Counted from the first letter of the stretch, positions 16,122-54,253 are shown. The stretch: 64,000 nucleotides of DNA from Bacteroidia bacterium (GCA_043778625.1 JAYWFU010000104.1:3216-67215), one strand, 5' to 3'. The notes: generated by a model from the sequence alone, not told the origin. Made by a program: numbers and translations.

Positions 16122-16128
16122 ATCACTG

Positions 16129-16554: not shown

Positions 16555-16564
16555 CTTTTAGCTA

Positions 16565-17317: not shown

Positions 17318-17324
17318 TTCTTAA

Positions 17325-17717: not shown

Positions 17718-17731
17718 TTTATTGTCCTATA

Positions 17732-18004: not shown

Positions 18005-18011
18005 CTGTTAT

Positions 18012-18836: not shown

Positions 18837-18841
18837 TTCTA

Positions 18842-19135: not shown

Positions 19136-19136
19136 T

Positions 19137-19763: not shown

Positions 19764-19770
19764 CTCTCTA

Positions 19771-20391: not shown

Positions 20392-20422
20392 AATTTCTAT
20401 ATGAGATTTTAATTGTTAACTA

Positions 20423-20728
20423 CTAAACCTTAATTTCTACTTCTACACCGCTTGGTAACTCTAATTTCATTAAAGCATCTACTGTTTTAGTAGTAGAGCT
20501 ATAAATGTCAAGTAAGCGCTTGTATGAACACAATTGGAATTGTTCACGTGCTTTCTTGTTTACGTGTGGTGAACGTAATACAGTGAAAATCTTTTTGTTT
20601 GTAGGAAGTGGAATTGGTCCACTAACAACTGCTCCAGTAGCTTTTACAGTTTTAACAATTTTCTCTGCCGATTTGTCGACTAGATTGTAGTCGTACGATT
20701 TTAATTTAATTCTAATTTTTTGACTCAT
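20423..20728 (-). CDS. rpsJ: 30S ribosomal protein S10
   Basis: 101 aa; canonical S10. Confidence 0.95.
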
Positions 20729-20745
20729 TTCACAGAATGATTTAA

Positions 20746-22860
20746 TTAAACTTTCTCAGTTTTTCCTTTTGATTTTGCGATTACATCATCAGCGACGTTA
20801 CGGGGAGCCTCAGCATAGTGTGAGAATTCCATTGAAGATGTAGCTCTACCAGAGGTAATTGTACGTAATGTTGTTACATAACCAAACATTTCAGATAATG
20901 GAACCTTAGCTTTAACCACTTGGTTATTACCTTTAGAATCCATACCATCCAATTGACCACGGCGTTTATTTAAATCGCCTACAACATCACCCATATTTTG
21001 ATCTGGGGTTACTACTTCAATTTTCATTATTGGCTCTAACAACACCGGATTGGCTTTCGGCAAAGCTTCGCGGAATGCTGTTTTTGCAGCTATTTCGAAT
21101 GATAGTGAATCTGAATCGACAGCATGATAAGATCCATCAATAAGGACAATTTTTAAAGAGTCCATAGGATAGCCAGCTAATACACCATTAACCATGGCAG
21201 CTTTAAATCCTTTTTCTACTGAAGGAATAAATTCTCGAGGAATATTACCACCCTTTACTTCGTTAACAAATTGTAATGGACTTTTTTCAATGTCCCAATC
21301 TTTGTCAACTGGTGATACGGTAAACTGAATATCAGCAAACTTACCGCGACCACCTGATTGTTTTTTGTATACTTCACGGTGGTTTAATGTACCGTTAATA
21401 CTTTCTTTGTAAGATACTTGAGGTGCACCTTGATTGATTTCTACCTTAAACTCACGACGTAAACGGTCAACAATGATCTCTAAGTGAAGTTCACCCATAC
21501 CACTAATGATTGTTTGTCCTGAATCTTCATCCGTTTTAACACGGAATGTAGGATCTTCCTCAGCTAATTTACCTAAAGCCATTCCTAATCTATCTAAGTC
21601 AGCTTGAGTTTTAGGCTCAATAGCTACTCCAATAACTGGTTCAGGAAAGTTCATTGCTTCCAATACTATTGGATTACCTTCATGGCATAAAGTATCACCA
21701 GTTTTGATGTCTTTAAATCCAACCGCTGCTCCAATATCACCTGCTTCAATAAATTCAATTGAATTTTGTTTGTTAGCATGCATTTGGAATATACGTGAAA
21801 TACGCTCTTTGTTTCCTGTGCGTGAATTTAATATATAAGAACCAGCATCTAAACGTCCTGAGTAAACACGGAAGAAGCATAAACGACCTACAAATGGATC
21901 AGTTGCTATTTTAAATGCTAATGCAGTAAATGGCTCTTTGACATCTGGCTTGCGTATAATTTCAGCTTCAGTATCAGGGTGAGTACCTATTATACTTTCT
22001 TTATCAAGTGGGCTAGGCATTAATTCCATTACTAAATCCAACATTGTTTGTACACCTTTATTTTTAAAAGATGAACCACATACCATTGGCACAATTTTGT
22101 TAGCAATACAAGCTTTACGCAATGCAGCTAAAACTTCAGCTTCAGTAATTGAATCAGGATTATCAAAGAACTTCTCCATAATTTGATCATCAAATTCGGA
22201 AACTGCCTCTAACATTTTTTCTCTCCACTCAGTAGCTTCTTCCAACATATCAGCGGGAATTGGCACTACTTCGTAAGTCATACCTTTATCAGTTTCGTTC
22301 CAAACCATTCCACGGAAGTTGATTAAATCAACTACTCCTTTAAATGTTTCTTCGGCACCGATTGGTAATTGTAACGGTATAGCATTACCTCCTAAAACTT
22401 CGCGTACATCTTTAACAACTGATAAAAAATCAGCTCCAGAACGATCCATTTTATTGACGAAACCTATACGAGATACACCGTAATTATCAGCTAAGCGCCA
22501 GTTAGTTTCTGATTGAGGCTCAACACCATCAACGGCAGAAAATAAGAACACTAAGCCATCTAATACACGTAATGAACGATTTACCTCAACAGTAAAATCT
22601 ACGTGACCTGGTGTATCAATAATATTAATTTTATATTTGTTATTGCGATAATCCCAAAAACAAGTTGTAGCTGCAGAAGTAATTGTTATTCCACGCTCTT
22701 GCTCTTGAACCATCCAATCCATAGTAGCTGCACCATCATGTACCTCTCCTATTTTATGGTTAACTCCTGTGTAGTATAAAATACGCTCAGTAGTTGTAGT
22801 TTTACCCGCATCGATATGCGCTGCAATACCTATGTTTCTAGTATATAATAAATCTGACAT
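20746..22860 (-). CDS. fusA: elongation factor G
   Basis: 704 aa; GTPase motifs [17 protein letters not shown]. Confidence 0.97.
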
Positions 22861-22884
22861 TGTTTATCTTTTTTTTATATTAAA

Positions 22885-23352
22885 TTAGAAACGGAAATGA
22901 GAGAATGCTTTGTTAGCCTCTGCCATACGATGTGTATCTTCTTTCTTTTTGTAAGCTGCTCCCTCTTCTTTTGAAGCAGCTACAATTTCGTTAGCCAATT
23001 TAGCTGACATTGATTTATCGTTACGACGGCGTGAAAAAGTTATTAACCACTTCATACCTAATGCTAACTTACGATCAGGGCGAACCTCTATTGGGATTTG
23101 AAAGTTAGCTCCACCTACACGGCGGCTTTTTACTTCAACTGAAGGAGATACGTTTTCGATTGCTTTTTTAAACACATCTAAACCATTCAACTCCGTTTTT
23201 TTAGCTGCTATATCAACTGCATCATAAAACACTTTGTAAGCGGTAGATTTTTTACCTCCGTACATTAAGTTGTTTACAAACTTTGCAACCATTACATCAT
23301 TAAACTTTGGATCAGGCAATACAAGGCGTTTTTTCGCTTTTGCTTTTCTCAT
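22885..23352 (-). CDS. rpsG: 30S ribosomal protein S7
   Basis: 155 aa; canonical S7. Confidence 0.95.
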
Positions 23353-23385
23353 AATTATATACTTTTATTAATTGTAGTGTTACGA

Positions 23386-23793
23386 TTATTTCTTTTTCTT
23401 AGCTGGAGCTGCAGCAGCACCCGCTTTAGGTTTTTTAGTTCCGTATTTAGAACGACGTTGATTACGTCCATCAACTCCCGAAGTATCCAAAGCACCACGT
23501 ACTACGTGATACTTAACACCTGGTAAGTCTTTAACACGACCTCCACGAACAAGTACAATTGAGTGTTCTTGTAAATTATGCCCTTCTCCTGGTATGTAAG
23601 CAGACACTACTGTACTGTTTGTTAAACGTACACGAGCTACTTTACGCATTGCAGAATTAGGTTTTTTTGGAGTTGTAGTGTACACACGTACACATACACC
23701 TCTGCGTTGCGGGCATGCATTTAATGCAGCGGCCTTTTTTCTGTAAGTTTTGTCGGTTCTACCCGTTCTTACTAGTTGCGAAATTGTAGGCAT
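23386..23793 (-). CDS. rpsL: 30S ribosomal protein S12
   Basis: 135 aa; canonical S12 (MPTISQLVR...). First gene of the superoperon. Confidence 0.95.
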
Positions 23794-23880
23794 TTCTTAA
23801 TTTTAGATTGTTTGTTGTTATCTCTATTCTGTATAATCATGCAAAAGTAATATTCTTATTGGAATAACAATACTCTGCTA

Positions 23881-23888
23881 CAAATTTA
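23881..23888 (-). promoter_or_regulatory. candidate Bacteroidetes-type -7 promoter box (TAAATTTG = TAnnTTTG) upstream of rpsL
   Basis: Minus-strand TAAATTTG ~90 nt upstream of the rpsL start, inside a 350 bp AT-rich leader. No clear -33 TTG found. Confidence 0.3.
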
Positions 23889-24149
23889 TTAGCTTTTTAA
23901 AGTCTATTGTTAATAACTTTTGAATTATTTCGGCGACAGTTTTACTCTCCGCTTTGGTTAGCGTTATTGTTTATGGTTTCATTTTTATTCGTTGAGTAAC
24001 TTTATAACCTTGTAGAGGTTGATGCATTATTTTTTAATTTAATTAAAATATGCTACAATTGTGTTATAAGTTCGCTAGAGATAAATTAATGTTTTTTTTT
24101 GCAGTACCGATTTATGTTTATTACCAAGTAATGCTCTTGTTGTTTTTAT

Positions 24150-24989
24150 CTAAACGGTTACTGCTTTTAGTGATAAGTCTAAACTTTTTACGCTATGGGT
24201 GATCCCACCTACTGATATGTAATTAACCCCTGTGCGTGCGTAGGCATTAATAGTTGCTTCGGTTATGCCTCCACTTACTTCTGTAACAAACCTATTATTT
24301 ATTAGTAATAATGCTTGGCTAACATCCTCCACACTAAAGTTGTCTAACATTATGCGTTGCACGTTGCCTGTGGCTAGCACTTGTTGTACTTCGGCTATGT
24401 TGCGAGTTTCTATTTCTATTGGTAACTGTAAGTTATTATCCAGTAGGTATTTATTAGTTTTTACTATGGCTTGGGCTATTCCGCCAGCATAATCAACATG
24501 GTTGTCTTTAAGCATTATCATATCATACAACCCAAAACGGTGGTTATGCCCCCCTCCTATTAGCACCGCTTGTTTTTCGAGCATACGCATGTTGGGGGTA
24601 GTTTTGCGGGTATCAAGTAATTTACAATTTGTATCTTTTATTAATTGTACAAAATAGTTAGTGCGAGTAGCTATGCCACTCATGCGTTGCATTATATTAA
24701 GCACTAAGCGTTCGGCTTTGAGTATGCTTTGCGCGCTACCTTGCACATAAAAAGCTACATCGCCATATTTTACAATAGCCCCATCGTTTAACAATATTTC
24801 TAGTTGCAATTTATCGTCCACCAACTTAAATACTTGTAATGCTATATCAACTCCGGCTAGTATGCCATTATCTTTTACTAAAAGTTTGGCTTTATTGGTG
24901 GTGTCATTAGGCACGCAAGCGAGTGATGAATGGTCGCCTGTGCCTACATCTTCAAGTAATGCTTCAGTTAAAAATTCTGTTACTGTCAT
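24150..24989 (-). CDS. nadC: nicotinate-nucleotide (quinolinate) phosphoribosyltransferase
   Basis: 279 aa; typical NadC length and TIM-barrel motifs. Confidence 0.85.
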   Translation of the reverse strand: MTVTEFLTEALLEDVGTGDHSSLACVPNDTTNKAKLLVKDNGILAGVDIALQVFKLVDDKLQLEILLNDGAIVKYGDVAFYVQGSAQSILKAERLVLNIMQRMSGIATRTNYFVQLIKDTNCKLLDTRKTTPNMRMLEKQAVLIGGGHNHRFGLYDMIMLKDNHVDYAGGIAQAIVKTNKYLLDNNLQLPIEIETRNIAEVQQVLATGNVQRIMLDNFSVEDVSQALLLINNRFVTEVSGGITEATINAYARTGVNYISVGGITHSVKSLDLSLKAVTV

Positions 24990-25002
24990 AGTAAATTATA
25001 TA

Positions 25003-26319
25003 TTATTGTTGTGCTTGCTGCAATGTATGTTCAAATACTTGTCGCCAATTTTTCCAAATAGCATTTTCGCTTAATGTTTCGTTGTGCCAAAGGCTTATAA
25101 ACGTACCATTAACGGCTTTAGTTTCTTGTATGAGTTGGGTTATCACTTTTTGAGCTTCGACAATTGGTAGTTTTTGATACAAATGCAGTGTTGCGTCCAT
25201 AACCTGAAACGGATGAATACATAGTTTTGTTTCGGACTCCAAATCTAAATCATAAAACAAAAATGGTGTACAAGTACCCGCTCTAAACCCCGTTTGCTGG
25301 GCAAAACCCATTGAATAATCATTTTGAATATCCACCTGCAATAGTTTGCGGTAGGTTTCGGGAAATTGTAGTTTTAAAAAATGTTGGCGGCTCATGGTTA
25401 AATCGCGATGAGTTACTTTTTCGAGCGATTGTTTTTCGCGTAACAGATAGCGTTCGGCTGTATTGCTTGCATACGAGGGGTGTAAGCCTATTTGCGACAC
25501 ATCGGCAATGGATTTAATGAGCGATTGAAACGATTTGTTTTTAATGGATAAATTGGTATCGTACTTGCTGTATTGCCCCACCAAAAAAAAGAAAATAACT
25601 TTGGTACTATATTTTTGATGTTGCGTATGAATGTAATTGTAAGTATTGTAAGGATCGTTGGTAAGTTTGGCAAACACTTTAAAACGCTCAGTAAGTTGCT
25701 TTAAATCAAGCCGTACAATATTACGTACAAGCGAAAGTGCGCTACGTATTAGGCCCTTGTGTAAGTAAGCGTAGGCATTGTCAATATCAATGGTAGAAAT
25801 GTATTGATAGCTTCGTTTTTTGATTACTAACGTGGGAAATGCTGTGGTTAATACACTTTGTAATTGGAGTATCCATCTATCTACCACAGCTAATTGCAAA
25901 AAATTATGTTGATAAGCTAATGTGTTTTGTGGGTGAAATCTATCGTGATTATCTCTAATGGTAGGTAAATACTCCTCATACCTACTTATCATATAAAATA
26001 CTGCCGAAAATATATCATAAGGTAACGCCGCATTAACTGAAGTGCTAAAAAATACAGGTGTTTGCAGGTGCTGAAATACCTTAATAGACTGCTCATTAAT
26101 TCCAGTTTCTTTGAGTAATCCGTTAGGGAACACTATTATTTCGTTAGTAACGGTTGATGGTGTACGCGAATAATTGAGTTTGGCTATTACCGAGGAGGAT
26201 TCGTTATAGTCGTTGATGTTGGTGGTAGTAGTATATTGAATGCCTAAAAAATCGTTAAAAATAAAATTTAATGTATACCGCAATCGGTTAGTACTGTATG
26301 GAGTGTATATTAATAACAT
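25003..26319 (-). CDS. conserved hypothetical protein, possibly polysaccharide deacetylase family
   Basis: 438 aa; N-terminus MLLIYTPYSTNRLRYTLNFIF resembles a Bacteroidetes family usually annotated polysaccharide deacetylase-like; recognised from memory only. Confidence 0.4.
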   Translation of the reverse strand: MLLIYTPYSTNRLRYTLNFIFNDFLGIQYTTTTNINDYNESSSVIAKLNYSRTPSTVTNEIIVFPNGLLKETGINEQSIKVFQHLQTPVFFSTSVNAALPYDIFSAVFYMISRYEEYLPTIRDNHDRFHPQNTLAYQHNFLQLAVVDRWILQLQSVLTTAFPTLVIKKRSYQYISTIDIDNAYAYLHKGLIRSALSLVRNIVRLDLKQLTERFKVFAKLTNDPYNTYNYIHTQHQKYSTKVIFFFLVGQYSKYDTNLSIKNKSFQSLIKSIADVSQIGLHPSYASNTAERYLLREKQSLEKVTHRDLTMSRQHFLKLQFPETYRKLLQVDIQNDYSMGFAQQTGFRAGTCTPFLFYDLDLESETKLCIHPFQVMDATLHLYQKLPIVEAQKVITQLIQETKAVNGTFISLWHNETLSENAIWKNWRQVFEHTLQQAQQ

Positions 26320-35177: not shown

Positions 35178-35219
35178 TAGTTATTCATTCACAGCACAAC
35201 TAGGACTAGCAGGGGGAAT
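35178..35219. repeat. sub-repeat AGTTATTCATTCACAGCACAACTAGGACTAGCAGGGGG (MITE-family fragment)
   Basis: Matches 1824-1860 nearly exactly. Ends in a degenerate TIR. Confidence 0.5.
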
Positions 35220-35727
35220 TAAAAATTTCATTCGAATTTAAAGTGTGTTTATACAAAAGATTGTCGTAATCAGCCATATTCCATTCTTTAAATTTGTAAA
35301 ATGCTTTTAAAGCATTTTCGTATCTTATAGGAGAAATTATGGTTTGATAACTTAGCCGTGCAAATTCGTTAGCAGTAGCCTCTCGTAATATTTTCCCTTT
35401 ATAATCTGTTATACTCATATCATTGGGAGATATGCCTAATTTATGGTAAGGTAAAACTATTTGACTTATATTTTCAATAAGATTTCCTATGACAGACCAA
35501 CTATTATGATATAATTTTGCATCTAGTGAATAACCTAAAAATAAAATGGGAGATGAAGAGATGTTAGCTAAATCAACAACATGTTTTAAATCCTGTCTAT
35601 AATCAAAAACAACCATAATAAAACAATCTTTTGTAATGGGAAAGTTCACTATCTGACCAAACCCTACTTGATTATTCGATAAAGGAATAGTAAATATATC
35701 TCCTACGTTTAATTTAAATTTTGCCAT
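35206..35727 (-). CDS. hypothetical protein (cassette gene between MITE-like repeats; possible immunity protein)
   Basis: 173 aa; no signal peptide. Bounded by repeat fragments. Confidence 0.45.
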   Translation of the reverse strand: MAKFKLNVGDIFTIPLSNNQVGFGQIVNFPITKDCFIMVVFDYRQDLKHVVDLANISSSPILFLGYSLDAKLYHNSWSVIGNLIENISQIVLPYHKLGISPNDMSITDYKGKILREATANEFARLSYQTIISPIRYENALKAFYKFKEWNMADYDNLLYKHTLNSNEIFNSPC

Positions 35728-35816
35728 TATTATTATCTCTTTTTTGCATTTCGCTTATTTGATAGTTTTCCATCAGGATTTTTTTTGTTTTTCACTCCCT
35801 CTTCTAAGTCAATATG

Positions 35817-35986
35817 CCCCTGCTGGCGCGAGCATGTTGCTCGTGTCCGCTACCATTGTACCAAACTTTATTTTCTTATTTACTATCATTAATTATTACA
35901 ATTAGTTTTTATTTTTTAATGAATACCAGCAACATGCTCGCACTAGCTTATACTACACGCTTACCTAACGCTAGAGCTAGCGGGGG
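35817..35986. repeat. MITE-like repeat copy B
   Basis: 170 bp, CCCCTGCTGGCGCGAGC...GCTAGAGCTAGCGGGGG. About 90 percent identical to copies A and C. Confidence 0.75.
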
Positions 35987-35994
35987 TAGCATGG

Positions 35995-36888
35995 CTAATA
36001 TTTTTCAAGATACTTTTTCCAATTATTTGGATAATCCTCTTTTATTTTTTTAAGTACAAATTCTGGTACCGGAGCATCTCGATAATCAACACCTTTATTT
36101 TTTAAAAAATCTACAACCGCCATCTTTTCTAAATACTTTTTAGAATGTAAAGGTTGTAAATCCTCCCTTAAAAGTCCAACTATATATATCTTTTCTCCTC
36201 CTTCATAAAAGTTAGCTCTGTCAAAAATCATTAACGAATAATCAGCTCCTTTTTGAAGAAGATACAAAACAACGTCGTAATGCTTAAAAAGCAAAGCTTC
36301 GGCAAGAGGAAAAGCATTAAACTCATTTTTATAATTTATATTAGCTCCAACTTCCACAAGCATTTTTACTTTTTTTATAGGAGATTGTGTTTCGGAGACA
36401 TCACTAATCGCCAATAATAAAGGGGTTTGCCTTGTTGAATTACCAACTCTTCTTTCCCCCGTTTCTTCATCGTTTGGATTACCTTTATAAGCCAGCATTA
36501 ATTGTAAAAAAGATGCGTTTTCATTTTTAAAATCTGTAATACCTGCAGAATAAATAATAGCAGATCTACCGTCATAATTACTATGTTTGTTTGGATCTGC
36601 TCCTAATTCTAACAACACTTTACATTCATTGTACTGTTTGTTTTGTACCGCTAACATTAATAATGTTTGCCCAAATATTACCTCTTGACAATTTACATCT
36701 ACCTTATCTTCAATAATTATTTTTTTAATTTTACCCGTGTCTTCATTCTCTACTGCTTTAGCTAAATCCCATACTTGAGTTCCTTGAAACAACCTATAAT
36801 CATTACCTCTTAAGGTAGATTTGTCTATGTCTTCACATGCGGAAAATAATAATGTTAACAATAGCAAAAGAATTGTTTTTTTATCCAT
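35995..36888 (-). CDS. ankyrin-repeat lipoprotein (possible polymorphic-toxin immunity protein)
   Basis: Lipoprotein signal MDKKTILLLLLTLLFSAC from ATG at 36886-36888; the ORF track start at 36903 is a TTG. Several ANK repeats follow (LLMLAVQNKQYNECKVLLELGADPN...). Confidence 0.65.
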   Translation of the reverse strand: MDKKTILLLLLTLLFSACEDIDKSTLRGNDYRLFQGTQVWDLAKAVENEDTGKIKKIIIEDKVDVNCQEVIFGQTLLMLAVQNKQYNECKVLLELGADPNKHSNYDGRSAIIYSAGITDFKNENASFLQLMLAYKGNPNDEETGERRVGNSTRQTPLLLAISDVSETQSPIKKVKMLVEVGANINYKNEFNAFPLAEALLFKHYDVVLYLLQKGADYSLMIFDRANFYEGGEKIYIVGLLREDLQPLHSKKYLEKMAVVDFLKNKGVDYRDAPVPEFVLKKIKEDYPNNWKKYLEKY

Positions 36889-36908
36889 ACGTATTTTTAC
36901 CAATTTGA

Positions 36909-37942: not shown

Positions 37943-37943
37943 G

Positions 37944-38016
37944 TGGTCGCGCAGGGATTCGAACCCCGAACCTTCTCATCCGTAGTGAGATGCTATATCC
38001 ATTAAGCCACGCAACC
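37944..38016 (-). tRNA. tRNA-Arg (anticodon ACG)
   Basis: Hand-folded cloverleaf: acceptor GGTTGCG/CGCGACC, anticodon stem TCTCA/TGAGA with loop CTACGGA, T-arm CGGGG-TTCGAAT-CCCTG. CCA not encoded. Confidence 0.8.
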
Positions 38017-45161: not shown

Positions 45162-46808
45162 CTATTTTTGCACTACCATTTTTTTAATAATTATAGTTCC
45201 GTCTTGAGTAGTAATTTTAATACAATACAATCCGTTACTTAATTCGCTAGTAGTAATATCATAAGTTGTAGCCCACGTAGTACATTCGTTTATAACTGTG
45301 CCCGTAGGGCTATAAAGTGTTAGTGTTGTAGCGCCCGCCAATGCTGATAAATTTAACGTGCAATTATTAGTTGCAGGGTTAGGGTACAAGGCAATGTCTT
45401 TAGCGGTTAATTTACCCGTAGCGGTTACACAATTATTAATGGTAATAGTGCTACTAGTAGGTACACTACTACCCGTAGCATTACTTGCCGTAAGTGTTAT
45501 TGTATAAGTGCCTGGGGTATTGTAAGTAAATACAGGGTTGGCAACAGTACTAAAATCAGGCGCTGCACCATTAGCAATCCAACTCCAAGTACTTGGGCTG
45601 TTACTAGAACTATCGTTGAATGTAATAGGTTGAGTTTCGCATTTATTTGTAGTAGTGTCAGTATAACTTGCTATGGGAGGGATATTGGTTACCCCCGTGT
45701 TTTTAGTATACCATATTGGCGATGTCCAAATTACATTGCCATCAGTTTGTGTTATGCGTAAGTAGTAATAATTAGTACTGTTATTAGCTACCACAGGCGT
45801 GTAGTTAAGTATAGCCGTAGTTACTGTTTTAACAATAGTTGGAGTAATACCACTACCCGGTACACCACTGTACACTTCTATTTTGGACACATTATCGCCC
45901 GCATCAGCATCAGTAATAGTAGCGCTTAATGTAGGGTTAGTAGCTTGCTCAATTATGCTACCCATAACTTGATTATTAATAGTGTAGTCAACTTTTGTAT
46001 TCCAATCGTCAGAAGCATAAAAACGCATTTTACGCATTGCCTCCAGTAATGCAGGCTGTGTAAGCTCGGTAGCCATAATTACTAACCTCCCTGCCTGCGA
46101 CCGCCCAAACACTGAGTTGTGGGTGTCGTGGTCGAGGCCTGCACCCAAATGATAGCCTTGCGCCAAAGCAGCATGATAGCGTATGGCGTAGGTTGATGTA
46201 CTATTATCAGTATAAGTAGTGTTGGTTGAAAAAGCTGGGCCACTACGCAATGCCCCACCTATTACACAACTATCAGCAAGGGAGGTATAGGTAGTAAAAA
46301 AATTACTATAATCGCTTGCTTGTGGGTGTGCCAAGTAAGCAAAAGCACCTGGTTTTTTAGTTATTGTTTTCCATAAATTAATGTAATCGTTTTGCGCCAC
46401 AAACACATCGTAGTTGTTAGGAATCCAACTTATTAAAGAATCGTAACCATATATTAGCACGTGCCCTCCGTTAGATATAACGCCAAACTCCATACCGTAT
46501 AACGCCACAAAAGCTCCGTTAGTTGTGGCCGCTTGTGCATCATTCCAACCTTTATGGTAGTTAGCAGGTGTCATTTGTACCGAGGTGTAATGGTTATGCT
46601 CCGAAACACCATAAAAATCAATATGCTGTGATGCTTTAGCATACACAAATGCTTGATAAGGAGTAGTCATAAGTGATGTAGCACTATCCTTATTACCATC
46701 GGAATAAGACGTGTGTGCATGTATATTGCCGTAATAATAATTATAGCTTTGACCATTAACTAATGTTGCACTACACAATATTAATAATGCAAGGAATACA
46801 TATTTCAT
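45162..46808 (-). CDS. secreted PHP-domain (metal-dependent phosphoesterase-like) protein with PKD domain and T9SS C-terminal sorting domain
   Basis: 548 aa; signal peptide; GNIHAHTSYSDG PHP motif; PKD-like FTYNTPGTYTITLTASN; T9SS CTD LYPNPATNNCTLNL...GLYCIKITT. Confidence 0.6.
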   Translation of the reverse strand: MKYVFLALLILCSATLVNGQSYNYYYGNIHAHTSYSDGNKDSATSLMTTPYQAFVYAKASQHIDFYGVSEHNHYTSVQMTPANYHKGWNDAQAATTNGAFVALYGMEFGVISNGGHVLIYGYDSLISWIPNNYDVFVAQNDYINLWKTITKKPGAFAYLAHPQASDYSNFFTTYTSLADSCVIGGALRSGPAFSTNTTYTDNSTSTYAIRYHAALAQGYHLGAGLDHDTHNSVFGRSQAGRLVIMATELTQPALLEAMRKMRFYASDDWNTKVDYTINNQVMGSIIEQATNPTLSATITDADAGDNVSKIEVYSGVPGSGITPTIVKTVTTAILNYTPVVANNSTNYYYLRITQTDGNVIWTSPIWYTKNTGVTNIPPIASYTDTTTNKCETQPITFNDSSSNSPSTWSWIANGAAPDFSTVANPVFTYNTPGTYTITLTASNATGSSVPTSSTITINNCVTATGKLTAKDIALYPNPATNNCTLNLSALAGATTLTLYSPTGTVINECTTWATTYDITTSELSNGLYCIKITTQDGTIIIKKMVVQK

Positions 46809-46897: not shown

Positions 46898-48034
46898 TTA
46901 TTCTGTTACACATTTTAGTACTTGTGTTGCCAAGCCTTGTTGCAACTGTGCAATATATAATCCTTTGGGTAAATGACTAAGGTTAATAGTTTGATTAGTG
47001 TTATTAATTAATTCGTTAATAACCGTTTTGCCTGCCCCGTCTATCACTACTAATGTGGTAGCAACGGTAGTTGTTTTGTTTATAATTAATTGATGTGAAG
47101 TGTTGCTATAATACATGGTTACCCCATCAATTTTAGTTAAACTAGGCAAGGCATTTGTTGGATTAAGTTTTTGATATTCCACCGTAGTAAGCAACCCAAG
47201 TGTTGTGGGGTTGGTGGAGTTATAGGTAACTTTTAGTACAGGTTCTTTTTTGCCTGCTACTATCCACTTGTATTCTGTAATGTATTGTGTAAATATAATA
47301 CCTGGCAATGCCCCAGCAATGCCCGATTTTAGTTTTAACGAATCGTTTAGCACGCTATACGATTTTACACGCAAGCAGTTAAACGTACCTAGCGGAGTAG
47401 TTACCATGCCCCAGCCATCTACTTGGTTGTAGCGGTGTCGTTTCTCTTCTACAAAAGCTACATTGGGTACATCAATTTTCCAGGTACTGTAACAGCTATC
47501 TACATTACCATAATTTAATGGGAATTTAAACCACACGTCCATATCGTATTGTGGGTCGAGTGCTACTGAAAGTGGTAACCCATTAACCATTGCGCCAAAA
47601 CCTGTTTGCGCATACAAGCGCTCAGGGTTAGGATTGATGATAGGTATTACGGGCTTATTAGGGTTTTTGTAAAAACCATATACCTTAGTTATTTGTATGG
47701 GCGATAGCGCGGGCAACGGAATATCATCAATTTTAATGGCTACATCCGAACTATTTTTGGTTATTTGATTATTAAAATATAATTGATAGGCTATGGGTGC
47801 CGAGGTTACACTTACAAAAGTATCTAAGCGCGTAGTGGTTGAATTTAACTGCGAAAAATCCCACATAAAATCAGCTCCTGTAAGCGTAGCGTCAACACCG
47901 TTTAGGTTAGTGGTAATGCCCATATACACCGTGTCTTGTGCCTTGGGCATATCAGTACGTTTTATGGTTATTTGCGCAAGGCCTAGCTGTGCAGTAAGCA
48001 TTAATAGTGCGGTAGTTATTGGTTTACTGTTCAT
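46898..48034 (-). CDS. secreted protein with T9SS C-terminal sorting domain
   Basis: 378 aa; signal peptide; C-terminal HLPKGLYIAQLQQ CTD-like. Confidence 0.55.
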   Translation of the reverse strand: MNSKPITTALLMLTAQLGLAQITIKRTDMPKAQDTVYMGITTNLNGVDATLTGADFMWDFSQLNSTTTRLDTFVSVTSAPIAYQLYFNNQITKNSSDVAIKIDDIPLPALSPIQITKVYGFYKNPNKPVIPIINPNPERLYAQTGFGAMVNGLPLSVALDPQYDMDVWFKFPLNYGNVDSCYSTWKIDVPNVAFVEEKRHRYNQVDGWGMVTTPLGTFNCLRVKSYSVLNDSLKLKSGIAGALPGIIFTQYITEYKWIVAGKKEPVLKVTYNSTNPTTLGLLTTVEYQKLNPTNALPSLTKIDGVTMYYSNTSHQLIINKTTTVATTLVVIDGAGKTVINELINNTNQTINLSHLPKGLYIAQLQQGLATQVLKCVTE

Positions 48035-48120: not shown

Positions 48121-48300
48121 AATAGGTGTCTTTTAACAATTATTTTTTTTTCTAACACTTCAATACGTTTAAGTAATTGTTCAATTAGCAATTGTTGTTG
48201 TTCGTTTTTTAATTTTTCGGTTTAATGTTGTGCATTAAGTTCTTTTATTGCTTCAATTAATATGGGAGTAAATTTGCTATCATCTACGTTTTGTAGTATT
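48121..48300 (-). pseudogene. decayed 3' remnant of a second tail-fiber/peptidase-S74 gene
   Basis: 48215-48300 is ~80 percent identical to 49745-49830, the 3' end of the 1430 aa gene. It encodes VDDSKFTPILIEAIKEL, then frameshifts into a coiled-coil LKNEQQQLLIEQLLKRIEVLEKK. Confidence 0.55.
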
Positions 48301-48304
48301 GGTA

Positions 48305-48826
48305 TTAATACGCACGAATGGTACTTGCGTTTACTTCCATTAAGTCGCCTTTTTGCTTGAGCACAGCTATACCTAGGTCTAGGGCTTCTTGCTCCAATTC
48401 GGCATAAAAACTAAAACTAGCTAAGCCACAGTATATGGTATAGTCAGCATAATCAGGATTAAGTGCTCTAAAATTTGGTACTTTACTTTCCACCAGCTTT
48501 ATAAGGTCGTTTTTGTGCGCTTTGTATTTACATTCGATAAGTGCTATGCTATTACCGTTGTACATTACCACATCAAATTCGTCCTGTAGGCGTTTGGTAC
48601 GTTGTTTTACGTTACGGTCCACATAATCGTAACTAATGCCCGCAAACAATTTAGACGTTTCAAGAGCGTTATAAAAATAATATTCGGCAAAGTCACCGTT
48701 GTTATGCCCTACATTTGATAATTCCCTGCTTGTGCGCTCTACTTGTGCTTCAGTTTGGGCAAAACGCAAAGCGTTTTGGGCTATAAGTTCTGCTAATGAT
48801 TGCTCTATTCTATCTATACGTTCCAT
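48305..48826 (-). CDS. PD-(D/E)XK-like nuclease-fold protein with N-terminal coiled coil (paralog 2)
   Basis: 173 aa; motif DEFDVVMYNGNSIALIECKYK (D..E.K). C-terminal ~60 aa nearly identical to 48959-49528. Confidence 0.5.
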   Translation of the reverse strand: MERIDRIEQSLAELIAQNALRFAQTEAQVERTSRELSNVGHNNGDFAEYYFYNALETSKLFAGISYDYVDRNVKQRTKRLQDEFDVVMYNGNSIALIECKYKAHKNDLIKLVESKVPNFRALNPDYADYTIYCGLASFSFYAELEQEALDLGIAVLKQKGDLMEVNASTIRAY

Positions 48827-48871
48827 GTGTAGTATATTTTTAATTTTAACACAAATATAATTATATTTTAT

Positions 48872-48907
48872 ACAACAAAGGCTACCTATCAGGTAGCCTT
48901 TGTTTGT
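48872..48907 (-). terminator. long conserved hairpin (ACAACAAAGGCTACCT-ATC-AGGTAGCCTTTGTTTGT) between the paralogs: terminator/attenuator-like
   Basis: 16 bp stem. A near-identical element at 49626-49661 precedes paralog 1. No strong U-run. Confidence 0.45.
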
Positions 48908-48958
48908 TATGTTTTAGCACAATGCACTAAGAAATTTATTCATTAAGATGGAGCTTAA

Positions 48959-49528
48959 CTAATACGCACGTATTGTACTTGCGTTTACTTCCATTAGGTC
49001 GCCTTTTTGCTTAAGTACTGCTACACCTAGGTCTAATGCTTGCTGTTCTAATTCAGAGTAAAAACTAAAGCTCGCTAAGCCACAGTATATAGTGTAGTTA
49101 GCGTAGTCGGTGTTGAGCTCTCTAAAATTACTTACCTTTTTTTCTACTAATTTCTTCAAGTCCTTTTCATGCGCTTTGTACTTGCATTCTATTAAGGCTA
49201 TGCTGTTGCCGTTGTACATTACTAAGTCAAATTCGTCTTCTAATCGGTGGCGTTTAATGTGTATGTTTTTGCTAATTGTGTCGTACTTAATTCCTGCAAA
49301 TACCATAGTTTCGCTAAGCGAATTATAAAAATAATCCTCCGCATAATCGCCATTATTGTGCCCTATGTTAGATAGTAAAGCTTCCGTTTTAGCAAAACGC
49401 TCGTCGCCTTTGGCAAACAATGCTTTGGTTTCGGCAAAGCCTCTTTGTGTTTGGGCTTGGGCTTTTTGATTTTCGGCTTGCATTAGGAGTATGCTTGCCA
49501 CTAGGTCTTTAAGTTCTTGGTCGGTCAT
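48959..49528 (-). CDS. PD-(D/E)XK-like nuclease-fold protein with N-terminal coiled coil (paralog 1)
   Basis: 189 aa; DEFDLVMYNGNSIALIECKYK; same C-terminus as paralog 2. Confidence 0.5.
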   Translation of the reverse strand: MTDQELKDLVASILLMQAENQKAQAQTQRGFAETKALFAKGDERFAKTEALLSNIGHNNGDYAEDYFYNSLSETMVFAGIKYDTISKNIHIKRHRLEDEFDLVMYNGNSIALIECKYKAHEKDLKKLVEKKVSNFRELNTDYANYTIYCGLASFSFYSELEQQALDLGVAVLKQKGDLMEVNASTIRAY

Positions 49529-49625
49529 GGGGATAGATTGGGTTTTAGATATTAGACACTAAATTTTAGACGTTAGATATATAGATGGTAGGTTTTTGTA
49601 AGTACAACAAATGTAGTTATTTTAT

Positions 49626-49661
49626 ACAACAAAGGCTACCTGTCAGGTAGCCTTTGTTTGT
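49626..49661 (-). terminator. long conserved hairpin downstream of the tail-fiber-like gene
   Basis: ACAACAAAGGCTACC-TGTC-AGGTAGCCTTTGTTTG; duplicated at 48872-48907. Confidence 0.45.
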
Positions 49662-49686
49662 TATGTTTTAGCACAAGTCGTTATTT

Positions 49687-52600
49687 TTACTTACGTTTTA
49701 AGGCTTCTATTTCTTTGCGTAGTTCTTCAATAGCTTTTTTATCAGTATCGCGCTCAGCTTTTAGCTCTTTTATTGCTTCAATAAGTATTGGAGTAAATTT
49801 GCTATAATCTACACCTTTGTAGCCATCGGCACTAGTGTTAATTAGTTGTGGGTACACTGCCTCTACCTCTTGGGCTATTACGCCTACTTGTGTGCCTTGG
49901 CCAAAGCCTTTGTCTTTGTACTCGGCTTTCATATCGTAGGTTACGCCACGTAGCTTTAGCACATTGGTTAGTGCACCTTGCAAGGTAGTAACGTTTTGCT
50001 TATAACGAGCATCACTTGGGGTAATAGTACCACTGGCTAGTATGTTGCCTATTACGTGGAGTTTTTGGGTAGGAGCATTAGTACCCATACCTATGTTACC
50101 ATTATCATAGCGAATAGCCAAACTATTAAGTGCAAGAGTTGATTCCATAACTAATACTTGATTTACTACATTACCTAGCGGGTTGTATTGAGATATTCTA
50201 AAATCTAAATCATCAGCTGCATTATCTTTAAAATCAATATAAGCTTTAGTAAAAGGTGTAGATAACTGATTACGGAATATCTCCAATTGTCCATCAGTAG
50301 ATATAATGGCTGAGCTTAGCCCATTACTATTTTCTGTAAGTACAGAACCATCTACCAAGTGGAGCTTTTGTGTGGGTGAAGCTGTACCAATACCTACGTT
50401 GCCAGTAGGTTGTATTACTATTGCGTGCGATGAGTTAGTTCTATTACCAATAGCGAAACTACCGTTAGCACTAAATCCTCCATAGGTACCTACAGATTCC
50501 AATACCCACTGTTGTCCACCTCCCCCTGTATTTTCTAATACAAAATCAACACTACCTGCTGGTGCCGCATCCTTAATATATAACTTAGCGCTTGGCGCAG
50601 TAGTACCAATACCTATGTTACCCGATGGGGCTTGCAATGTCAAAGCTACATTTGGAAACGGTAAGGTAGAGTTCCAAAAATGTAAATCTTTAGTGCCAGC
50701 GTTACTGTACATTTGCCAAGTATTGTTGTTTAAGCCTGCTGTTACGTTTTTAGCTAATGTTAAGCCAAAGTTATTTTCGGCAGTTTGTGTTATGTTTATT
50801 CGGTCGTCGGAGTTTACTAGCACGCTTAGTTTATTAGGGGGGGTTAATGTACCTATACCTACCGTGTGAGCAGCTGTTAGCACCATGGTTGTATTGTTAA
50901 TTAAGTCGTTAGTATTATTTTGTTGGCTTACTGCTCCACCTGTTATGGGGAAATTAGCTATGCCCAACGACCCACTCGAATGCTGATATATGGCACTACC
51001 TGCGTTAGATGACCCACCATCATGATCGCTTACAAACTTATTTAAAGTGGAGTTGTAATAGGTATTAAACCCTAAAAAGCCTCTGTAATTATAAAGGGCA
51101 TAAGCCCCTGTGCCTGCCGCTAAATCTCCTAACGAGTGTAAAAATATCTTGCTAGGCTCAAACGTTCCGCCCACCATAAGGGTAGCATCATTTGTAGCGT
51201 CGGTAGATACGTGTAGTTTAGCACTAGGCGCAGTTGTACCAATACCTACATTAACTTTATTAGCGGCAGTACCGCCTAATATTAAGCTATTACTTGCACC
51301 TACTTTGGCATTGTAGCCTATGGCGGTAGCGTTGGTAAATATGCTATCAGTGGCATCGGCAAGCGCACCCAAAAAGGTGTTGTTGCCCGTAGTGCTTACA
51401 AAAGCACCTGAGTTGTAACCTATGCTTGTATTGTAGTTACCAGTGGTATTGTTATACAAGGCTGATAAACCCAATGCAGTGTTGTAGCTGCCTACAGTAT
51501 TACGGCGTAGGTTAGTGTGGCCTAGCCCCACGTTTTCGTTACCTGTAGTGTTGTTAGCTAAGGCTTGGTCGCCCAATGCTACGTTTAGCGTGCCTGTAGT
51601 GTTTTGCTTTAATGCAGCTGCCCCTACAGCAGTGTTTGCGCTGGCTAAGCTATTAGTTAATGCTAAAGCTCCGATGGCTACGTTGCCTGCACCAGTGGTA
51701 TTAAGCTGCAAAGTACCCGTACCCACTGCTGTGTTAGTAGTGCCTGTGGTATTTTGTGCAAGCGAAGCGTAACCGTAAGCGGTGTTTTGTGTACCTGTGG
51801 TGGCTGGGTTTAATGCACTTACGCCAAAAGCAGTGTTTTGTAATGCGTTGTTAATTAATCCGCTCTGTAAGCCATTACGCTTAAACACTACATCTTGGTT
51901 GTCAGTTGTGCCCATAAAGTTGATAGCCGAGTTAGTACCACTATTGCCTGTAAGCCCCCAAAACAAACCGTTAGTTGGGGTGCTGGCGGTAGAAGCTGGT
52001 ATTACATCGCCATTGGCATCGGTACTTAGTACGCTTGCATTAGGTAAGTTGGTTAGGCGCAAACCACTGTTGCCTGTTGTGCCGTGGGTAATTTCTAACT
52101 TATTGTTGGGAGCATTTTGCCCAATGCCTACATTACCATTATTTAATATTGTTAGGCGAGATAAGTTGGGTGTAATATCATATATTGCTAAACCATTTAC
52201 ATCAGTTTGTATTCTAAATAAATCGCCAGCGGTAACACTCATATCAATAACTGTGTTTGTTGTATTGAATAGGTTTATACCATCGCCATTTATATCTAAT
52301 TTCCGTATAGGGGTAGTTGTACCTATACCTACGTTGCCATTGCTTTCAATGCGCATTTTTTCAGTAGCCAAAATAACTCCATTGTTGGTAGTTAAAAATT
52401 TTAAATTAGAACCTGCCTGTGTTGCGCTATGGTTTTCGGAAGTTTCACTTGTGATACCTGTTAACGAATTAGAAGTATTAAACGCTGTACCCAAATAACT
52501 TGCAAATGAAAGATAGCCCAAGCCGTCGCCTAACTGAAGAGGCGTTGGTGTGCTTAATGTGCCTCGTGCACCTTGCATGCCAAGCACACCGCCATAGGCA

Positions 52601-53979
52601 GGGGTTGTACTCATGTAATTAGTGTGGTATATACCTCTGTTATAGCCTTGGTCAACTACTTCTAATGTACCTGTTGGTGTAAACGGAGTACCTATGGCAA
52701 CAGCACCAGTAGTAAAAATACGCATGTTTTCAACTCCGTTGGTTTTAAGTACAAAATCTTGCGCATCGGTTGTACCAATAAAATTAGTGCCTGCTACTGT
52801 GCCTGCATTGCCCTTGAGTAGCCATGCTTGGGCTTTAATACTATCAGTTATGGTAGTGTTGGTTACGTTGGGTGGTGTTGTCCAAGTTGGGGCTACACCT
52901 GCGCCTGCGCTAGTAAGCACTTGCCCAGTAGTGCCAGCAAGGGTGTTAGGCATTAGTGCACCTGTAAAGCGTAGGTTACCCGTTACATCCAACGGTTGGC
53001 TGGGCAATGCTTGGTTAATACCTACGTAACCAGTACCACTTAGTATGGTTATTTTTTCGGCACTGTTGGCCACTATGTGCAAGTCGCGCGCATTAAGTGT
53101 ACCTAGTTTGTTAGTGGCACTGGCATTATTACCCTTGAGCAACCACGCTTGTGCGGCTATACTATCGGTAATAGTTTGTAGTATGTTTTGCCCGCCAATG
53201 TACAGGCTATCCATGTTGCTAACTCCTCCGTTAAATGTATTAGCAGTAATGCTATTGGTGGTTATTGTGTTGCTTTTTAGGGTATCAATTTGCCCGTTTT
53301 TAATGTAGGCATAGTTGGTGGTGCTACTATCTACTTTTAATATATTAATGTTAGCGTTGTTAATTATTGCTATATTGGTTATGCTGGTGTCTACGGTTAA
53401 TATATTAATTACGGCGTTATTAATGTTGGTATAATTAAATAGGGCAGTATCACCCTTGAGTATATTAATTATGGTGGTGCTGTTGCTATTCAAATATTTT
53501 TTAATGGCTTTGTTAAGCAAGGCGGTATCAATACTCTTGTCGCATAGATTTTTCCACGCCGTGCCGTTATAAAAATGGTAGCACGCGCTGTCGGTGTTAT
53601 ATATTAATAAGGCAGCTTCGGTGGTAGTGGTGGCTATGGCTAACATTGCGGGGGTGTTCATGCGTGGTGCCATAAAACCTTTGTCAGTTGCTTTTAGTTC
53701 CAATATAGCTTTGCTATTGGGGGTGGTGGTACCTATGCCTACGTTGTTTTGGGCTTGGGTGGTTACAAATGAACACGCAACAATTAGTAGGGTTAGATAA
53801 TAGTATTTAGATGTTAGACAGTACAGGCTAGATTTTATGCTGTTAGCTACTAGGCTTATGTGGCGGGTGATACCACCCCGCCCTGCGGGCACCCCTCCTA
53901 AAAAAGGAGGGGAACAGCATGGTGTGAGTGTGTTAGTTTGAGTGACTTGATTTGCGATGGTGAGTAATAGTGTTTTCAT
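49687..53979 (-). CDS. giant tail-fiber-like surface protein with VGIGTT..P..KL repeats, Hep_Hag/YadA-head-like NTA.G..AL..NTTG repeats and C-terminal peptidase S74 (endosialidase intramolecular chaperone) domain
   Basis: 1430 aa. Repeats such as NVGIGTTTPNSKAILEL, NIGIGTTAPSAKLYI. C-terminus SDARYKQNVTTLQGALTNVLKLRGVTYDM...GVIAQEVEAVYPQLI...ILIEAIKELKAE is a typical S74 chaperone domain. The annotated N-terminal 60 aa translate a GC-rich hairpin element, so the true start is uncertain. Confidence 0.7.
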   Translation of the reverse strand: MKTLLLTIANQVTQTNTLTPCCSPPFLGGVPAGRGGITRHISLVANSIKSSLYCLTSKYYYLTLLIVACSFVTTQAQNNVGIGTTTPNSKAILELKATDKGFMAPRMNTPAMLAIATTTTEAALLIYNTDSACYHFYNGTAWKNLCDKSIDTALLNKAIKKYLNSNSTTIINILKGDTALFNYTNINNAVINILTVDTSITNIAIINNANINILKVDSSTTNYAYIKNGQIDTLKSNTITTNSITANTFNGGVSNMDSLYIGGQNILQTITDSIAAQAWLLKGNNASATNKLGTLNARDLHIVANSAEKITILSGTGYVGINQALPSQPLDVTGNLRFTGALMPNTLAGTTGQVLTSAGAGVAPTWTTPPNVTNTTITDSIKAQAWLLKGNAGTVAGTNFIGTTDAQDFVLKTNGVENMRIFTTGAVAIGTPFTPTGTLEVVDQGYNRGIYHTNYMSTTPAYGGVLGMQGARGTLSTPTPLQLGDGLGYLSFASYLGTAFNTSNSLTGITSETSENHSATQAGSNLKFLTTNNGVILATEKMRIESNGNVGIGTTTPIRKLDINGDGINLFNTTNTVIDMSVTAGDLFRIQTDVNGLAIYDITPNLSRLTILNNGNVGIGQNAPNNKLEITHGTTGNSGLRLTNLPNASVLSTDANGDVIPASTASTPTNGLFWGLTGNSGTNSAINFMGTTDNQDVVFKRNGLQSGLINNALQNTAFGVSALNPATTGTQNTAYGYASLAQNTTGTTNTAVGTGTLQLNTTGAGNVAIGALALTNSLASANTAVGAAALKQNTTGTLNVALGDQALANNTTGNENVGLGHTNLRRNTVGSYNTALGLSALYNNTTGNYNTSIGYNSGAFVSTTGNNTFLGALADATDSIFTNATAIGYNAKVGASNSLILGGTAANKVNVGIGTTAPSAKLHVSTDATNDATLMVGGTFEPSKIFLHSLGDLAAGTGAYALYNYRGFLGFNTYYNSTLNKFVSDHDGGSSNAGSAIYQHSSGSLGIANFPITGGAVSQQNNTNDLINNTTMVLTAAHTVGIGTLTPPNKLSVLVNSDDRINITQTAENNFGLTLAKNVTAGLNNNTWQMYSNAGTKDLHFWNSTLPFPNVALTLQAPSGNIGIGTTAPSAKLYIKDAAPAGSVDFVLENTGGGGQQWVLESVGTYGGFSANGSFAIGNRTNSSHAIVIQPTGNVGIGTASPTQKLHLVDGSVLTENSNGLSSAIISTDGQLEIFRNQLSTPFTKAYIDFKDNAADDLDFRISQYNPLGNVVNQVLVMESTLALNSLAIRYDNGNIGMGTNAPTQKLHVIGNILASGTITPSDARYKQNVTTLQGALTNVLKLRGVTYDMKAEYKDKGFGQGTQVGVIAQEVEAVYPQLINTSADGYKGVDYSKFTPILIEAIKELKAERDTDKKAIEELRKEIEALKRK
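53861..53915. repeat. GC-rich hairpin element (GGCGGGTG-ATAC-CACCCCGCC; GCACCCCTCC-TAAAAA-AGGAGGGGAA) inside the annotated 5' end of the tail-fiber-like gene
   Basis: Shares the GCACCCCTCC and AAAGGAGGGGAA arms with the element at 5476-5560. GC content sharply above local background. Confidence 0.55.
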
Positions 53980-54253
53980 GATTATTTTGTTGTTTATTGA
54001 GTGAGTTATTAAATTATTTAGTGTGGTGTGTGTTTTGTTGTATTAATGTGTACGATATTTACTTAAACTGGCATTAATTTACGCTTAATTGATATTTATT
54101 AATTACGTTTTTAATTTGTTATTGCTAAGTAAAGCATAAATAAATATACGACCAAATCTATTTAGAATTCGCTGGGATTTAGTTAAAATTCGTTGTGTAA
54201 GTATTAGTGCTACTATTAGTTTGAATTAGATTAGTGATGTTATAAGGTATGTT

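Follow-up and report, generated by a model that had tools for sequence, protein, structure and literature searches.

A gene for a probable MAT-like fibre with a C-terminal Peptidase S74 chaperone on a Bacteroidia chromosome

S74-capped fibres and the Bacteroidia gene

Mosaic adhesive trimer (MAT) fibres were described in Bdellovibrio by Caulton et al. (2024) as the products of 21 chromosomal paralogues, 13 of which end in a peptidase S74 domain with an SDxxxK motif and 8 in other tips (PMC10769870). All have a signal peptide and a conserved, beta-rich N-terminal domain of ~130 amino acids (aa), and their capping loops follow the consensus V-G-G/N-pi-x-x-P-x-x-x-L, which is also found in MyRF (PMC10769870). 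Self-cleavage was proven for Bd3182 (at Ser782), the fibres are surface-located and bind prey, and structures have been deposited for several of them (8OJN/8ONB/8ONC, 8OND, 8OML/8ON4 and 8OL4/8ONF; PMC10769870). We report here on a gene for a protein of 1430 aa that ends in such an S74 domain, found in a stretch of 64,000 nucleotides (nt) from a Bacteroidia bacterium (GCA_043778625.1, JAYWFU010000104.1:3216-67215), hereafter the window.

The fibre gene lies at 49687..53979 on the minus strand (1430 codons plus stop, ATG start), exactly where an initial annotation of the window, made from the sequence, had placed it, and its product is identical to a public entry (P0001) carrying precomputed matches to PF26696 (PTL_trimer) and PF13884 (Peptidase_S74). 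The gene is a further, uncharacterised member of the MAT-like family of proteins combining PTL_trimer and Peptidase_S74, and its kind is not new, the MAT fibres and the Pfam/NCBI catalogue (PTL_trimer + Peptidase_S74; 'tail fiber domain-containing protein') providing the precedent. We consider it likely that the product is a Sec-exported, self-trimerising and autocleaving homotrimeric fibre of the MAT type, and that it extends outwards from the cell, serving in adhesion or recognition.

The S74 subgroup of the Bdellovibrio MATs (e.g. Bd3182) resembles the window protein in being chromosomally encoded, with a signal peptide, a length of ~1000 aa or more, trimeric beta-helical modules, VGxGxxxPxxxL capping loops, a C-terminal S74 domain with SDxxxK, and membership of a multigene family with alternative tips. 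The shaft and tip of the window protein match five MAT crystal structures (sequence E down to 1e-14; fold about 1e-4). However, the host of the window gene belongs to the Bacteroidota, with no sign of predation. The N-terminal module (N-module) is PTL_trimer (~85 aa), which may or may not be related to the MAT domain of ~130 aa, and the window fibre has a leader of ~60-76 aa, a 17-residue beta-roll block and a stalk with a period of 20 residues. In addition, some of the relatives are paired with proteins sorted by the type IX secretion system (T9SS).

Modules of the predicted fibre

The peptidase S74 intramolecular chaperone was identified at aa 1322-1430 (49690..50016, minus strand). The initial annotation had called this domain canonical and had proposed searches with hidden Markov models (HMMs), which bore it out: Pfam Peptidase_S74 (PF13884) matched aa 1322-1379 with a score of 57 bits (cutoff 22; E 2.3e-15), the alignment taking in profile positions 1-56 of 58, and the quoted C-terminal strings are present. 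This was the sole Pfam match of the fibre protein at E<=1, and the NCBIfam scan of the protein matched no family. The Ser-Lys dyad, the absence of which had been named as grounds for rejecting the assignment, is present in the sequence SDARYK, with Ser1322 encoded at 50014-50016 and Lys1327 at 49999-50001. The Ser, Asp and Lys residues of the SDxxxK motif are invariant across 26 aligned homologues, the motif is kept in all 58 full-length S74 domains found among the 120 best homologues, and Ser1322 and Lys1327 align with the catalytic positions of MyRF (phmmer against PDB).

Sequence and structure comparisons placed this domain close to described S74 chaperones. With phmmer, aa 1291-1385 matched the MyRF ICA domain (7DC3) and aa 1320-1421 the phage long-tail-fibre chaperone 6F45. 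We also modelled aa 1160-1430 with AlphaFold2 (AF2) from an alignment that included 26 homologues, and obtained predicted local distance difference test (pLDDT) values of 89-97 in the S74 part (aa 1324-1430). For this model Foldseek ranked 7DC3 first (E 9e-7); next came the fibre tips of Bd2133 and Bd3182 (E about 1e-4), while the K1F (3GW6) and GA-1 (3GUD) chaperones gave weaker, non-significant matches (E 0.01-0.05). The S74 fold is preceded by a part that resembles, in this monomer model, the beta-helix tips of Bd3182 and Bd2133. The MyRF ICA domain is thus the top structural match of the S74 part, and both the dyad and the preceding capping-loop motif align with it; however, MyRF is a membrane-bound transcription factor, and only the trimerise-and-cleave module is common to the two proteins.

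The MAT relationship extends upstream of the chaperone. The distal beta-helical tip (aa 906-1321, 50017..51264, minus strand), delimited by its motifs and by phage tail-fibre homologues, contains five or six capping loops, and aa 1171-1312 matched the Bd3182 tip structure 8OJN (phmmer E 0.0037); the fold matches of the tip region were 8ONC, 8OJN and 8OND (Foldseek, E about 1e-4). Once the S74 domain had been cleaved off, this tip would form the C-terminal end of the mature fibre. A motif map delimited shaft modules at aa 263-706 (51862..53193, minus strand), with three WxLxGN..F/LxGT starts and capping loops, including a segment (aa 440-570, 52270-52662, minus strand) homologous to the Bd1334 and Bd2439 fibre structures. 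The phmmer matches of aa 440-568 were 8OML (E 1.1e-14), 8ON4 (2.4e-12) and 8OL4 (2.6e-8), each entitled 'cell wall surface anchor family protein' in PDB, and 8OND (bd2133; 3.5e-5). A search for full-length Bd1334 with the 125-aa segment of 8OML gave no matches. Between the N-module and the shaft, an Asn/Ile/Thr-rich stalk (aa 160-262, 53194..53502, minus strand) has a period of 20 residues (autocorrelation peak at lag 20), and this module was found in 31 of the 120 homologues.

Ten loops of the VGxGxxxPxxKL type were located (aa 79, 319, 550, 617, 911, 1040, 1111, 1122, 1195 and 1296), and the units reported initially as VGIGTT-P-KL correspond to the MAT capping loop (consensus from PMC10769870). 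The NTAxGxxAL repeats reported alongside them are also real: periodicity analysis resolved ten 17-residue NTAxG repeats (aa 707-876, 51352..51861, minus strand) of beta-roll-like character. Their Hep_Hag/YadA label does not hold beyond a resemblance, as neither YadA_head nor Hep_Hag was matched in Pfam, even at E<=1. This block matched the tail-spike family phrog_4636 (E 4.7e-38), and its phage homologues are 38-53% identical to it.

The tail-fibre families sought at the suggestion of the initial annotation were also found, with 14 PHROG families matching the protein, nearly all of them tail-fibre or tail-spike families, in two zones (aa ~680-900 and the C-terminus). Against phage genomes, the whole protein matched 520 records, only via aa ~690-914 and ~1020-1430 (25-53% identity), and no phage protein covered more than 37% of it. 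The phages contributing tip and repeat homologues were those of Synechococcus, Pelagibacter, Roseobacter and Thermus. Phage S74 tailspikes and fibres (K1F 3GW6, GA-1 3GUD, T5 pb1 and S16 6F45) therefore resemble the window protein in carrying a Ser-Lys S74 domain behind a trimeric beta-helix, and the tip and repeat modules of the protein are homologous to those of phage tail fibres at the identities given above. By contrast, the gene for the window protein does not belong to a phage genome, and the protein starts with a signal peptide and lacks an N-terminal adaptor for a tail or baseplate.

The N-module corresponds to PTL_trimer and extends over aa 75-160 (53500..53757, minus strand). The family was assigned via the precomputed match on the identical entry and was placed at these residues because its occurrence follows that of matches to a local HMM of aa 75-160, which detected 85 of the 89 homologues annotated with PF26696 and 2 of the 31 unannotated homologues. 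It was present in 87 of the 120 best homologues, in an N-terminal position in 81 of them (median start at residue 29), and in most homologues a signal peptide immediately precedes it, the consensus at this junction being ..AQAQ/NNVGIGTTTPNSKAILEL.A.DKG.L.PR.. (here and below, the slash marks the predicted cleavage site). The AF2 model of the N-module (pLDDT 81) had no significant structural neighbour in PDB, the weak top fold matches all being trimerisation units (collagen XV/XVIII NC1, the CBA120 tailspike N-domains, HylP and Mtd), and the N-module profile gave only noise against PDB sequences. In metagenomes, a profile of the module retrieved 68,835 cluster representatives, 49,110 of them at E<=1e-10, among 1.84 billion, and tblastn of the N-module against 50,697 phage genomes gave nothing at E<=0.01. 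Since the N-module has no phage match, whereas the repeat block and the tip with its S74 domain have phage homologues, the protein, as judged from its sequence, is a chimera of a bacterial export signal and base with a shaft and tip drawn from a pool of modules common with phage tail fibres.

The first 76 residues (53752..53979, minus strand) form an extended leader and signal peptide, an architecture conserved in paralogue-like loci. The signal peptide, which the protein has in common with the MAT superfamily, was recognised by eye. Its hydrophobic core is YYYLTLLIVACSFV and cleavage is predicted at TQA/Q77, conserved as ..AEAQAQ/NNVGIG in paralogues; the site was placed by eye and with the Bacteroidota Q-rule (Gln at +1), and the mature protein would thus probably start at Gln77. 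In many paralogues (L004, L006-L009, L012 and L015), the first 55-70 aa from the ATG form an extended leader that is conserved, with the pattern ..CKTRL..YTPNQ.LQ..IQRTA followed by a hydrophobic core and AEAQAQ/NN, and in the leader alignment SSLYCLTSKYYY of the window protein is aligned with PSLYCFTKYIV of L007. These leaders are functionally reminiscent of the ESPR of large autotransporters, with no Pfam ESPR match.

The window leader additionally contains an insert. A GC-rich double hairpin (CCCCTCC-loop-GGAGGGG followed by GGCGGGG..CCCGCC; fold prediction, 53862..53919, minus strand) is translated in frame as CSPPFLGGVPAGRGGITRH, a 19-residue insertion with respect to the aligned paralogue leaders, and occurs once in the window, in a genome of ~35% GC. 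Owing to this hairpin, the first 76 residues initially seemed non-coding. Because the paralogues share an extended leader that aligns with that of the window protein, we take the ATG at 53979 as the probable start codon; an alternative GTG start, at codon 30, falls inside the hairpin. An Rfam scan of the 5' region returned nothing relevant to the hairpin. Comparable leader inserts were found in L010, P0006 and P0014 (PLSGGVSAGRGGF, PLRWRGARSAGRF and PLLGGARGGF). A conserved regulatory role for the hairpin was rejected, the exact motif being missing from the other 116 upstream regions, and a sporadic insert is the better reading. Such an insert may derive from a short, mobile palindrome that DNA encoding a leader can accommodate.

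Family, neighbourhood and flanking sequences

Of the 8,000 candidates scored in full-length searches, 761 were homologues at E<=1e-5. All those with a taxon in their source name belong to the Bacteroidota, and many have no such name. The labels given to the homologues are 'tail fiber domain-containing protein', 'hypothetical' and 'trimeric autotransporter adhesin' (Joint Genome Institute, JGI), the last of which is mistaken. The 120 best homologues comprise 49 with N-module and S74 domain, 38 with the N-module only and 19 with S74 only. The family is therefore, like that of the MATs, a multigene family with a conserved base and swapped S74 and non-S74 tips, in which paralogues exchange fibre modules and some replace S74 by other C-terminal tips.

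Species-representative genomes were scanned with two N-module peptides from close sequences, and at least 464 loci were confirmed. Among the 80 loci listed, 79 are labelled as Bacteroidota (Bacteroidia, Chitinophagales and Flavobacteriales/Crocinitomicaceae) and one as Candidatus Competibacteraceae; the best identity among the matches listed was 81%. Two related Bacteroidia metagenome-assembled genomes (MAGs) contained at least 13 (LF-bin-500) and at least 19 (SF1_2_14) N-module loci, these paralogue counts referring to related MAGs since the source genome is absent from the scanned collection. Tandem arrays of three to five fibre genes occur in related genomes. We found no study of this Bacteroidota family in the literature on Peptidase_S74 and fibres in Bacteroidota or on PTL_trimer, and the part of the MAT supplements available to us does not list Bacteroidota relatives (PMC10769870).

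The surroundings of the fibre gene are those of an ordinary chromosome. A domain scan covered the 20 open reading frames (ORFs) at 34002-63689 (15 kb to one side and 10 kb to the other of the fibre gene, -15/+10 kb), and no capsid, terminase, portal, tail, baseplate, integrase or contractile injection system (CIS) gene was found among them, so that the initial statement that there are no capsid, terminase, integrase or tail genes within 10 kb is borne out. The neighbours had been described as T9SS cargo and housekeeping genes, which we also found: two T9SS-sorted proteins (45162-46808 and 46898-48034), a 2-oxoacid dehydrogenase E2 and an aldehyde dehydrogenase. Further neighbours are two small nuclease-like genes and DUF1697, OmpA/TPR/PD40, bactofilin, CcsA-like, M61 peptidase, PD40/Big_9, ankyrin, Imm26 and DUF2779 genes. 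The only tRNA (37943-38016) is 11.7 kb from the fibre gene. An Imm26-family immunity gene stands beside an ankyrin-repeat gene (35206-36903), and this pair may be what is left of a locus for polymorphic toxins or immunity, although the scanned ORFs included no identifiable toxin gene.

Six further homologue loci with called genes were found in housekeeping surroundings, five of them without phage genes. A virion fibre would be expected inside a structural gene module, and neither the window gene nor the homologues at these five loci lie in one. It would also be expected to be cytoplasmic, docking on the tail by its N-terminus, whereas the window protein has a signal peptide and an N-module without a phage match. 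At the remaining locus (L085), a phage-like cluster (15987-25040) with weak Baseplate_J_C, DUF6046 and TMP_3 tape-measure matches lies ~1 kb from the S74 homologue P0082, on the opposite strand; this is the sole phage-type context among the seven loci examined.

Some relatives are accompanied by putative partner genes. Directly 3' of the fibre gene, L084 encodes a Por_Secre_tail protein twice (12652-13878 and 21974-22652), the stop and start codons overlapping, and in L085 a fibre gene is similarly paired with one for a T9SS-sorted protein (15083-15814). In 16 of 83 loci (e.g. L016, L018, L026 and L081), a member of a neighbour family of ~450-650 aa is found directly upstream on the same strand, and the member at L003 has a faint CHU_C match and adjoins PorP_SprF. 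The T9SS-sorted partners may hint at how the fibres reach or attach to the surface; this pairing is missing at the window locus. The possibility that the T9SS-sorted neighbours in the window are the L084/L085 partner genes was rejected, only the sorting domain being similar.

The fibre gene looks like a transcription unit of its own, because a palindrome lies 29 nt 3' of the stop codon and a TAnnTTTG box 181 nt 5' of the ATG. The palindrome (49628..49658, minus strand; terminator scan) is perfect, with 15-bp arms, is a likely terminator and forms part of a 59-nt repeated element. The box, TAGATTTG (54153..54160, minus strand), is a candidate Bacteroidota -7 promoter element found by regular expression, which is weak evidence given the frequency of the motif in the window (~1/kb per strand). 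The GC content of the fibre gene (0.40-0.455 over 50001-53000) is higher than that of its surroundings (about 0.30-0.39). As one residue in three of the fibre (33%) is Thr, Gly or Ala, this elevation is probably compositional (Gly/Ala/Thr-rich), and recent transfer need not be invoked.

The 3' flank is rearranged. All on the minus strand, it contains a first copy of the 59-nt palindrome element directly 3' of the fibre stop codon (49618-49676; repeat analysis), a nuclease-like gene A (49528..48959), a second, 98% identical copy of the element (48864-48922), a nuclease-like gene B (48826..48305; 79% DNA identity to A) and a decayed S74 3' end (~48150-48290), which forms a 94-nt direct repeat with the fibre 3' end and is translated as VDDSKFTPILIEAIKELNAQH, a stop and TEKLKNEQQQLLIEQLLKRIEVLEKK. 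The region between the fibre stop codon and the S74 remnant (48130-49690) thus consists of a duplicated cassette of the 59-nt element and a PD-(D/E)XK gene. Genes A and B are tandem paralogues of ~180 aa (71% aa identity) whose similarity to CARF-nuclease effectors (Card1/Csx1/CARF_PDDEXK) is confined to the PD-(D/E)XK nuclease part, with no CARF sensor domain, and they had no homologue in 86 related loci. Because the remnant repeats the fibre 3' end, and because its tail (...LLKRIEVLEKK) is closer to the family consensus than the present tail of the fibre, the cassette was probably inserted into the last S74 helix, on the evidence of these sequences, where it would have supplied a new in-frame coiled-coil ending. 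More speculatively, small mobile cassettes of this type (hairpin plus PD-(D/E)XK gene) in S74 3' ends could contribute to fibre-gene rearrangement.

Proposed assembly, rival explanations and implications

The chaperone biology of S74 domains is established in the K1F endosialidase, T5 pb1, MyRF and Bd3182, and by analogy the following route can be proposed for the window protein. The leader and signal peptide of 76 residues would direct the chain to the Sec translocon and be removed, exposing Gln77. The S74 chaperone (aa 1322-1430) would trimerise first and template the folding of the upstream tip and shaft, after which the Ser1322/Lys1327 dyad would cut before Ser1322, releasing a 12.2-kDa chaperone from a 129-kDa chain (aa 77-1321). 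The mature fibre would consist of PTL_trimer, stalk, shaft with capping loops, beta-roll block and beta-helix tip, and would project from the surface, the N-module lying nearest the cell and the tip uncovered by cleavage at the far end. A role as a surface adhesin is probable by analogy with the MAT fibres.

Several observations weigh against this reading of an exported surface fibre. The N-module is also found internally and in multiple copies (P0121-P0269), with up to 17 stretches (17 in a protein of 4319 aa and 14 in one of 4687 aa), and because of this it is a general trimer building block rather than a proven cell-surface anchor. No T9SS sorting domain, autotransporter barrel or acidic lipoprotein export signal was found in the fibre protein by the Pfam scan, so none of these can account for the way in which it would cross the outer membrane. 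The in-frame GC-rich insert in the leader also makes the choice of start codon uncertain. The monomer AF2 model of the tip is of low confidence (pLDDT <60); a poor monomer model is expected for an intertwined trimer. Finally, the last ~24 S74 residues appear to have been replaced by the cassette, which could affect function, though the helix is modelled confidently.

The missing sorting signals bear on the possibility that the product is a secreted or envelope fibre with a role other than adhesion. It could, for instance, be released as a component of a matrix or biofilm, serve as a structural element of the periplasm, or act as a bacteriocin or lectin in the form of a fibre. A signal peptide guarantees export to the periplasm only, neither an anchoring nor a sorting signal for the outer membrane was found by the Pfam scan, the N-module is not confined to N-termini, and the T9SS-sorted partners in some lineages might be the true surface component. 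T9SS cargo status for the fibre itself was rejected, Por_Secre_tail and CHU_C being missing from it in Pfam searches, though present in the neighbours at 45162-46808 and 46898-48034. However, the only experimentally studied relatives, the MAT fibres, are surface adhesins (PMC10769870), and tips that diversify while the base is conserved are the hallmark of proteins that bind receptors, so we regard a non-adhesive role as unlikely.

The homology of the two distal modules to bona fide phage tail fibres, together with the homologue ~1 kb from the phage-like cluster of L085, would be consistent with the fibre serving, in trans, a contractile injection system, a tailocin or a phage-like particle encoded elsewhere in the genome. 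Such use is difficult to reconcile with a Sec signal peptide, which is incompatible with cytoplasmic assembly onto a tail, and with an N-terminus, the end by which fibres dock on the baseplate, consisting of a module without a match in 50,697 phage genomes. Moreover, the numbers of paralogues per MAG (at least 13 and at least 19), scattered in housekeeping contexts, are unfit for a single particle, and there are no CIS genes within -15/+10 kb; we therefore hold this explanation to be quite improbable.

It is very unlikely that the gene is the last surviving structural gene of a decayed prophage. The PHROG tail-fibre matches, the GC content of the gene (0.40-0.455 as against ~0.35 around it) and the rearranged 3' flank with its S74 remnant could be read in this way, but the ORF of 4.3 kb is unbroken and encodes both a signal peptide and an N-module without a phage match, no integrase, tRNA-adjacent attachment site or phage debris was found in the scanned region (the only tRNA is 11.7 kb off), the same architecture occurs hundreds of times in bacterial chromosomes, and the higher GC content is probably explained by the Gly/Ala/Thr-rich composition. 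The signal peptide, the N-module without a phage match, the many and often tandem paralogues and the housekeeping contexts support instead an intact, chromosomal, host-encoded gene that is not a stranded phage gene. The initial description of a 'domesticated, host-encoded fibre' is upheld in its second part by the signal peptide with Gln at +1, the N-module and the paralogues; its implied transfer from phage to host is not, and only a common pool of modules is indicated.

A trimeric autotransporter adhesin (TAA; type Vc), as JGI names several homologues, is hardly credible. Like YadA and BadA, the window protein has a long leader and would form an extended trimer rich in repeats, in which one block is beta-roll-like and rich in Asn, Thr, Gly and Ala, and it plausibly acts as they do, as a surface adhesin. 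Its NTAxG repeats resemble YadA-head repeats, its leader recalls the ESPR, and homologue P0082 has a weak YadA_head match, but YadA_anchor, YadA_head, Hep_Hag and ESPR were all unmatched even at E<=1, there being neither a YadA_anchor barrel nor Pfam head or stalk matches, and the C-terminus is a chaperone that would be cleaved and discarded, the opposite of the TAA membrane anchor and in reverse polarity, so that membership of the TAAs is refuted by the missing C-terminal anchor that defines them.

The interpretation of a Sec-exported, MAT-like surface fibre has consequences for annotation, as a 'tail fiber' or S74 match accompanied by a signal peptide and PTL_trimer should not count as evidence of a prophage. 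It was only in 2024 that prey recognition by Bdellovibrio was traced to self-cleaving, phage-like fibres encoded by the host, and the same principle is encountered here on an ordinary Bacteroidota chromosome. The family comprises tens of thousands of sequence clusters, with up to dozens of copies per genome, and its Bacteroidota members are apparently unstudied. It is conceivable, if speculative and on present evidence doubtful, that PTL_trimer fibres constitute a major class of Bacteroidota surface fibres, exported via a dedicated leader and possibly a T9SS-partnered route, with dozens of tip-swapped paralogues recognising cells or surfaces, as a non-predatory counterpart of the Bdellovibrio repertoire. 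If these proteins are displayed at the surface, they would pose a question of secretion, as the T9SS and type V signals are missing, and they would represent a large unexplored set of adhesins and recognition proteins in environmental Bacteroidota.

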